Source: Escherichia coli (GTDB taxonomy: Bacteria; Pseudomonadota; Gammaproteobacteria; Enterobacterales; Enterobacteriaceae). Taken from it: a stretch of 64,000 nucleotides of DNA. The first letter of the stretch is position 1. Each line of letters opens with the position of its first letter. Below, piece by piece: positions 26,005 through 27,132 of this stretch. Where the stretch lies: the NCBI RefSeq assembly GCF_046105845.1, contig NZ_CP151004.1; one strand, given 5' to 3'. The notes beneath the pieces were generated by a model. That model made no database searches. It was given only the letters and a program-made list of their open reading frames with translations, and was not told where the DNA came from. A program made the position numbers and the translations under genes.

Positions 26005-27132
26005 ATGAAAGTTAAAGTACTGTCCCTCCTGGTCCCAGCTCTGCTGGTAGCAGGCGCAGCAAACGCTGCTGAAGTTTACAACAAAGACGGCAACAAATTA
26101 GATCTGTACGGTAAAGTAGACGGCCTGCACTATTTCTCTGACGACAAGTCTGTAGATGGCGACCAGACCTACATGCGTCTTGGCTTCAAAGGTGAAACTC
26201 AGGTTACTGACCAGCTGACCGGTTACGGCCAGTGGGAATATCAGATCCAGGGCAACAGCGCTGAAAACGAAAACAACTCCTGGACCCGTGTGGCATTTGC
26301 AGGTCTGAAATTCCAGGATGTAGGTTCTTTCGACTACGGTCGTAACTACGGCGTTGTTTACGACGTAACTTCCTGGACCGACGTACTGCCAGAATTCGGT
26401 GGCGACACTTACGGTTCTGACAACTTCATGCAGCAGCGTGGTAACGGCTTCGCGACCTACCGTAACACTGACTTCTTCGGTCTGGTTGACGGCCTGAACT
26501 TTGCTGTTCAGTACCAGGGTAAAAACGGTAGCGTAGATGGCGAAGGCATGACCAACAACGGTCGTGGTGCTCTGCGTCAGAACGGCGACGGCGTTGGCGG
26601 TTCTATCACTTATGATTACGAAGGCTTCGGTATCGGTGCTGCAGTGTCCAGCTCCAAACGTACTGACGCTCAGAATGGTACTTACAAAGTTGATAATGTA
26701 ACTCGCAACTACATCGGTACTGGCGACCGTGCTGAAACCTACACTGGTGGTCTGAAATACGACGCTAACAACATCTACCTGGCTGCTCAGTACACCCAGA
26801 CCTACAACGCAACTCGCGTAGGTTCCCTGGGTTGGGCGAACAAAGCACAGAACTTCGAAGCTGTTGCTCAGTACCAGTTCGACTTCGGTCTGCGTCCGTC
26901 CCTGGCTTACCTGCAGTCTAAAGGTAAAAACCTGGGTGTCATCAATGGTCGTAACTACGACGACGAAGATATCCTGAAATATGTTGATGTTGGTGCTACT
27001 TACTACTTCAACAAAAACATGTCCACCTATGTTGACTACAAAATCAACCTGCTGGACGACAACCAGTTCACTCGTGACGCTGGCATCAACACTGATAACA
27101 TCGTAGCTCTGGGTCTGGTTTACCAGTTCTAA
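26005..27132 (+). CDS. ompC: Outer membrane porin OmpC, 375-aa allele
   Basis: Signal peptide [21 protein letters not shown], porin C-terminus ...LGLVYQF; very strong codon bias. Confidence 0.95.

Follow-up and report, generated by a model that had tools for sequence, protein, structure and literature searches.

A 375-residue OmpC of Escherichia coli that differs from the K-12 protein in surface loops L4, L5 and L7

The porin gene at positions 26005 to 27132 of the 64,000-nucleotide stretch of Escherichia coli DNA analysed here (contig NZ_CP151004.1 of assembly GCF_046105845.1; hereafter the window) is most probably the chromosomal osmoporin gene ompC with a natural, catalogued surface-loop allele, corresponding to one combination of L4, L5 and L7 cassettes, a reading to which we assign a probability of about 95%. 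The allele is already known and represents ordinary surface-loop variation with no new feature; the only mildly new detail is an L5 variant that is missing from the loop catalogue published in 2016.

The identity of the gene is given by its locus and by its protein family. The open reading frame has 375 codons, with an ATG start and a TAA stop, the end coordinate including the stop codon. The features of the locus, in positions of the window, are the following.

22594..25266, opposite strand to ompC and upstream of it: rcsD (list of open reading frames).
25578..25671, minus strand: micF antisense sRNA gene, divergent from ompC (Rfam RF00033).
26005..27132, plus strand: ompC coding sequence (open reading frame; NF007841 match; annotated as ompC in all matching complete genomes).
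26005..26067, plus strand: signal peptide, residues 1-21, same as in K-12 (alignment; mature chains in the PDB begin at query residue 22).
27151..27170, plus strand: intrinsic-terminator-like hairpin with a T-run, beginning 19 nt past the ompC stop.
27244..28299, downstream of ompC: apbE/ftp (list of open reading frames; annotations of K-12 and other genomes).
28373..29437, downstream of ompC: ada (list of open reading frames; annotations of K-12 and other genomes).

The gene order rcsD, micF, ompC, apbE, ada is the usual ompC setting, matching K-12 and the other annotated genomes, and the terminator-like hairpin consists of an 8-bp stem with five GC pairs, followed by TTTCATTGTT. When the 375-residue protein was compared with whole-protein HMMs, the NCBIfam model NF007841 'porin OmpC' gave 758.2 bits against a cut-off of 484, and precomputed Pfam matches for the encoded gene are PF00267 (Porin_1) and PF13609. 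The C-terminal aromatic residue (the ...VYQF beta-signal) and the Sec signal peptide are both the same as in K-12 OmpC. Locally similar paralogues do exist, since megablast hits a median of two places per genome, and it could be supposed that a paralogous or acquired porin (ompF, phoE, ompN or a prophage porin) has replaced ompC in this strain. This supposition can be discarded: the models for OmpF (473 bits, cut-off 583) and PhoE (449 bits, cut-off 599) both stay under their own cut-offs, the neighbours micF, rcsD, apbE and ada are in exact synteny, and outside three loops the gene is nearly identical to the ompC of K-12 and O157.

The regulatory region upstream of ompC is about 99% identical to that of K-12, and the neighbouring micF gene matches the full-length Rfam model with 116.8 bits (gathering score 79). 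The segment 25826..25885 on the plus strand presumably contains the OmpR-binding boxes C1-C3. A G-to-A change relative to K-12 is found at 25848, a position that we take to lie inside box C2, and it is unique to the window among the four strains compared; at 25823-25824, presumably just upstream of box C1, all four strains differ, with the dinucleotides AA, GC, CT and TC. In the window and two further strains, the micF terminator stem at 25589 has the sequence CCGGATGC, against CCGAATGC in K-12, which is the odd one out at this site; micF is otherwise identical. Elsewhere in the window, Rfam detects a naRNA4 element (REP-derived, CssrE) at 21841-21917, between rcsC and rcsB, and at the rcsC-rcsB intergenic site strain LR-64-1 has about 114 bp more than the window and strain Z1323HEC0462. 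The whole-window Rfam scan also shows a tRNA gene at 50553-50626, where related genomes have tRNA-Pro at the matching position, and a ribosomal protein L25 leader at 54342-54367, both of them ordinary.

An earlier note on this DNA had described the porin as eight residues longer than the K-12 protein and had placed such differences in surface loops. The lengths are borne out, as ompC of K-12 MG1655 (b2215; NC_000913.3, 2311646..2312749) spans 1104 nt, which correspond to 367 codons plus the stop, and its translation confirms 367 amino acids. The note had also named a different start codon as the finding that would overturn the loop interpretation, and an upstream start or a mis-called open reading frame could in principle add eight residues; nothing in favour of such an origin was found, and it can be dismissed, as the ATG, the Shine-Dalgarno region, the signal peptide and the first 46 residues match K-12. 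The C-terminus is also the same in a global alignment, and with both ends shared the length difference is internal; likewise, the alignments to mature PDB chains, which run from residue 22 to the C-terminal end, have internal gaps only. The global alignment with K-12 resolves the difference into three internal indels, of -4 residues in L4, +8 in L5 and +4 in L7, so that the figure of eight extra residues holds as a net total and fails as a single insertion, which this alignment rules out. The segments concerned are listed below, in positions of the window and residues of the 375-residue precursor.

26143..26151, plus strand: L1 substitutions N47D and D49S relative to K-12 (PMC5056734 S1 Fig; non-strand segment 46-55 of the structure model).
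26350..26436, plus strand: constriction loop L3, residues 116-144, protein same as K-12 (model: non-strand with a short helix).
26518..26589, plus strand: L4, residues 172-195, where GEGFTSGV becomes GEGM, -4 residues (alignment; class c7 of Beck et al.).
26659..26727, plus strand: L5, residues 219-241, long form of the b family of Beck et al. (alignment; model).
26677-26700, plus strand: L5 insertion GTYKVDNV, residues 225-232, +8 residues (alignment).
26935..26946, plus strand: L7 insertion GVIN, residues 311-314, +4 residues (alignment; class e of Beck et al., as in O157:H7).

Apart from these indels, 350 aligned residues are identical to K-12, with 13 substitutions and 19 synonymous codon differences. 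Eleven of the substitutions fall in L1, L4, L5 and L7: besides the two in L1, there are five in L4 (N176S, P177V, S178D, V186M and D192G), three in L5 (A230R, A231N and N235T) and one in L7 (G309N, residue 317 here), just past GVIN. The other two, G216A and I218V, lie in strand beta-10. The protein alignment shows no difference from K-12 in L2, L3, L6, L8 or the signal peptide.

The placement of the indels in the extracellular loops rests on two independent lines. The structure-based alignment published by Beck et al. (PMC5056734 S1 Fig) labels the indel segments as L4, L5 and L7, and an AlphaFold2 model, obtained from an 80-sequence alignment of enterobacterial and more distant porins, likewise puts all of them in predicted non-strand extracellular segments, with L4 at residues 172-195 and L5 at 219-241. 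The mapping on the structure thus bears out the location in surface loops that had been proposed. The model has a mean pLDDT of 90.7 and a pTM of 0.86, and its DSSP strands give a 16-strand barrel; confidence is moderate in the loops (pLDDT 77-80 in L4 and 77-82 for the loop blocks), and residues 1-18 are helical with low pLDDT. The predicted fold is that expected of an OmpC, a 16-stranded barrel with long extracellular loops, short periplasmic turns and L3 entering the pore, and Foldseek aligns it to the solved OmpC structures 2XE1, 2J1N, 9WCB and 2XE5 with target-normalised TM scores of 0.96-0.98 and rmsd values of 1.1-1.8 A. In the model, the L5 insertion is predicted to form a protruding beta-hairpin, with strands 226-229 and 232-235 and its tip at D230-N231, built mostly of inserted residues, and the L7 insertion makes the beta14-beta15 hairpin longer, its strands spanning residues 296-313 and 316-334 with a turn at 314-315.

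The allele has a record in other genomes. The protein is identical to RefSeq WP_072841508.1 'porin OmpC', known from strains Ec1120, LR-64-1, Z1323HEC0462 and others; among the nine closest complete E. coli genomes at least four encode it, and the public protein collection lists it on 286 contigs, with several NCBI and UniRef accessions. These observations bear on whether the length difference could be an assembly or sequencing artefact, such as a misassembly or a repeat collapsed or duplicated in the loops. The ompC DNA of the window is matched at 100% in no complete genome, the best identity being 99.8%, as an artefact might predict; however, the nearest genomes differ by two nucleotides, both synonymous, and encode the identical protein, the same protein is found on those 286 contigs from several sources and in four complete genomes, over 9,065 bp the window DNA matches the independent NCBI assembly GCA_044249515.1 (contig DBAMWG010000001.1) and a Logan assembly contig at 100% identity, and the inserted segments are not repeats of adjoining sequence. 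An artefactual origin is thus extremely improbable, and a genuine natural allele of ompC is the reading retained.

Natural variation of OmpC has been surveyed by Beck et al. in 2016 (PMC5056734), who distinguished more than 220 sequences among 2,707 OmpC proteins of E. coli and reported that variation is concentrated in L4 (33 types), L5 (30) and L7 (13), which occur in many combinations. Using the loop classes of that scheme (PMC5056734 S2 Table), L4 of the window allele is exactly class c7 and L7 is exactly class e, as in O157:H7. The L5 sequence has no match among the 30 L5 classes of the same table, and the string 'YKVDNVT' occurs 0 times in the supplements; L5 has the length and frame of the b family, and it differs from b3 by one residue (T to K) and from b1 by two (V to K and H to R). 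The comparison with known OmpC alleles proposed in the earlier note thus returns an identical RefSeq protein and the loop type L4-c7, L5 b-family, L7-e. Since the exact L5 is missing from the 2016 catalogue, the receptor properties of the protein are not simply readable from a tested allele.

The closest known proteins place the allele among several loop combinations. In the strains that carry WP_072841508.1 (Ec1120, LR-64-1 and Z1323HEC0462) the 375-residue protein is identical, at the same locus, and the gene DNA is 99.6-99.8% identical to the window, Ec1120 differing by two synonymous nucleotides (gene positions 294 and 642), whereas the flanking apbE-ada DNA is 3-8% divergent. WP_001539019.1, from KTE205 / FDAARGOS_536, has the combination c7/b1/e, similar to that of the UPEC strain A42H; it also has 375 amino acids, its L4 and L7 are the same and its DNA is 98.7% identical, and its L5, of the same length and family, differs in the hairpin by V instead of K228 and H instead of R234. 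The A42H OmpC itself has three further substitutions beyond these differences. The best sequence match in the PDB (738 bits) is the O157:H7 OmpC, WP_000865552.1 (PDB 9WCB), which shares with the window allele the short L4 family, with two substitutions (S to D and E to G), and an identical L7 with GVIN, but has 367 amino acids and a short L5, QNSPLYIGNGD, in place of the hairpin that is eight residues longer here. According to its Foldseek description, 9WCB shows the gpJ tail fibre of phage A8 in complex with OmpC of O157 (EDL933); it had been considered as the structure of the study on phage PP01 gp38 and was rejected, as the code is absent from that paper and the entry is the phage A8 gpJ-OmpC(EDL933) complex. 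K-12 OmpC (b2215; PDB 2J1N) superposes with the model at a TM of 0.96 and an rmsd of 1.8 A and has identical L2, L3, L6 and L8. The CFT073/536/OmpC20 type (WP_000865543.1; PDB 2XE1) is also a precursor of 375 amino acids (354 in the mature form), yet it has a long L4 (GENDPDFTGHGITNNGRK), a short L5 and VVAG or TIGT in L7, and its DNA is only 91.5% identical.

The length of OmpC was also tallied by us in 59 complete genomes, a systematic 'spread' sample of the megablast ranking in which lengths were taken from end-to-end alignments. The gene ranges from 1092 to 1131 nt in this sample; 28 of the 59 genomes encode 367 amino acids, 375, 373 and 364 are found in five genomes each, 376 and 374 in four each, 363 and 368 in three each, and 365 and 370 in one each. 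OmpC proteins of 363-376 amino acids are routine, and the K-12 length is merely the commonest of about ten classes. As 375 residues are reached by at least two unrelated loop combinations, length alone types nothing. When complete genomes were probed with 81 nt spanning L5, 602 of 5,426 proved to have a long L5 of matching length, with at least 95% identity in 140 of them (the b1-b3 group) and at least 99% identity, the L5 variant of the window, in 10. An interspecies donor of the long L5 was not found among the best 120 homologues. The OmpC proteins of Citrobacter amalonaticus, C. farmeri and C. telavivensis reach 376 amino acids through a long L4 (GEGADGLAYTGVTNNGR) with a short L5, and Citrobacter was rejected as a source of the long L5, its length being due to L4.

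The distribution of nucleotide differences around the gene suggests how such alleles may spread. Most genomes are only 90-95% identical to the window ompC by megablast, which places the gene among the more diverse ones here, and a set of 134 homologues shows shuffled ompC cassettes. In the comparison with O157:H7 ompC, differences cluster in about 200 nt around L4/L5, with near identity over the 480 nt at the 5' end and the 370 nt at the 3' end. Compared with the strains that have the same protein (Ec1120-type), ompC differs by 0-4 nt and the adjoining apbE-ada region by 7-34 nt per 250 bp; the flanks of these carriers are about 1.5% divergent from the window, and the carriers differ from one another by 1.0-1.7% across the surrounding 7-49 kb. 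As the gene is diverse and yet nearly identical between strains with diverged flanks, homologous recombination of ompC or parts of it would be the best explanation, as judged from these identity contrasts; the interchangeable L4, L5 and L7 cassettes may thus be shuffled among E. coli lineages by short-patch homologous recombination. The same mosaic pattern has been described, and recombination proposed, for ompC, ompF, ompA, lamB and fhuA in a bioRxiv preprint (10.1101/2021.09.21.461324).

The same pattern limits the use of the allele in typing the strain background, as had been suggested for it. It appears to be a rare marker (about 0.2% of complete genomes) and a poor indicator of clonal background: the part of the suggestion that stands is its rarity, whereas its typing value is restricted by the 1-1.7% divergence in the flanks of its carriers, which indicates that the allele tracks local recombination rather than clonal background, and by a length that is not diagnostic. 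Among the 5,426 complete genomes, the best matches for the 25-kb neighbourhood reach only 98.6% identity and are a mix of unrelated strains; the window comes from none of these genomes, and its lineage lacks a close representative among them. Positions 2000-51000 of the window are collinear with E. coli complete genomes, with a best identity of about 98.5-98.6% among the 5,426; an alignment of 49,000 bp with Z1323HEC0462 contains 732 substitutions and is free of gaps. The segment 27500-29750, which covers the 3' half of apbE, ada and the start of alkB, is unusually divergent, with a best complete-genome identity of 97.6% and some 250-bp bins carrying 19-34 differences, and an Ada protein identical to that of the window is recorded on only six contigs; this segment looks like a separately recombined patch adjoining ompC.

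As for function, the allele retains the barrel of 16 strands, the core that forms the trimer, the constriction by L3, the signal peptide and the micF/OmpR regulatory region, from which an ordinary general-diffusion porin should be expected. Trimer formation, conduction of small hydrophilic solutes and EnvZ/OmpR osmoregulation are predicted indirectly, from the conserved core and L3 and from the 99% identity upstream. It had been suggested that the loop differences change antibiotic permeation, and in a stronger form the allele could be viewed as an adaptive permeability variant, with loops that alter antibiotic or solute flux as in clinical OmpC/OmpK36 mutants. The extracellular loops do line the pore vestibule, and drug transport is altered in the clinical OmpC series and by L3 insertions in OmpK36, PDB entries of this kind being among the matches. 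The known resistance insertions of OmpK36, however, sit in L3, as the titles of the PDB entries indicate, and not in L4, L5 or L7. In the window allele L3 (116-144) is the same as in K-12, L2, L6 and L8 are also free of substitutions, and the barrel is unchanged except for the two conservative substitutions in beta-10; moreover, ordinary commensal and environmental isolates commonly carry these loop cassettes. With L3 as in K-12 the permeability variant gains no support and is very unlikely, the suggested permeation change is not upheld, and the allele gives no reason to expect a changed antibiotic permeability.

The conserved pore and the altered loops would instead be consistent with an allele that changes which surface-binding agents recognise the cell, and not transport. 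In published work, the diversification of OmpC loops has been attributed to selection from phages, contact-dependent inhibition (CDI) systems and host immunity. The class II CdiA of E. coli 536 recognises OmpC through L4 and L5, and the A42H OmpC allele made target cells resistant to CDI from that strain (PMC5056734). For the T2-type phage PP01, adsorption requires GVIN in L7 of O157 OmpC, and the phage gp38 cross-links to S225/P226 in L5 of the same protein (PMC12892980). The window allele keeps GVIN in L7, and the SPL segment of L5 is replaced by the longer hairpin. By analogy with A42H for CDI and with O157 OmpC for PP01, altered phage and CDI recognition is plausible, and it is reasonable to expect a receptor profile unlike those of K-12 and O157, and perhaps that of A42H.

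It may further be asked whether the K228/R234 hairpin, found in about 10 of the 5,426 complete genomes, arose recently from the b1/b3 L5 cassette as a variant escaping phages or CDI. We consider this origin possible but rather doubtful; were it true, the contact at S225/P226 on which phages of the O157-type OmpC such as PP01 rely would give way to a longer, positively charged hairpin, the L7 GVIN determinant would be kept, and receptor specificity would differ from that of both the O157 and the A42H alleles.

Taken together, these data describe an allele that reveals no new mechanism, identifies no strain on its own and matters little beyond routine annotation. Its interest lies in the surface of the cell: it is the OmpC loop allele of a strain that determines which phages of the T-even and lambdoid groups, and which CdiA toxins of class II, can dock on it, so that the loop type recorded here (L4-c7, L5 long b-type, L7-e) would be useful metadata for the prediction of phage host range and the choice of therapy phages.
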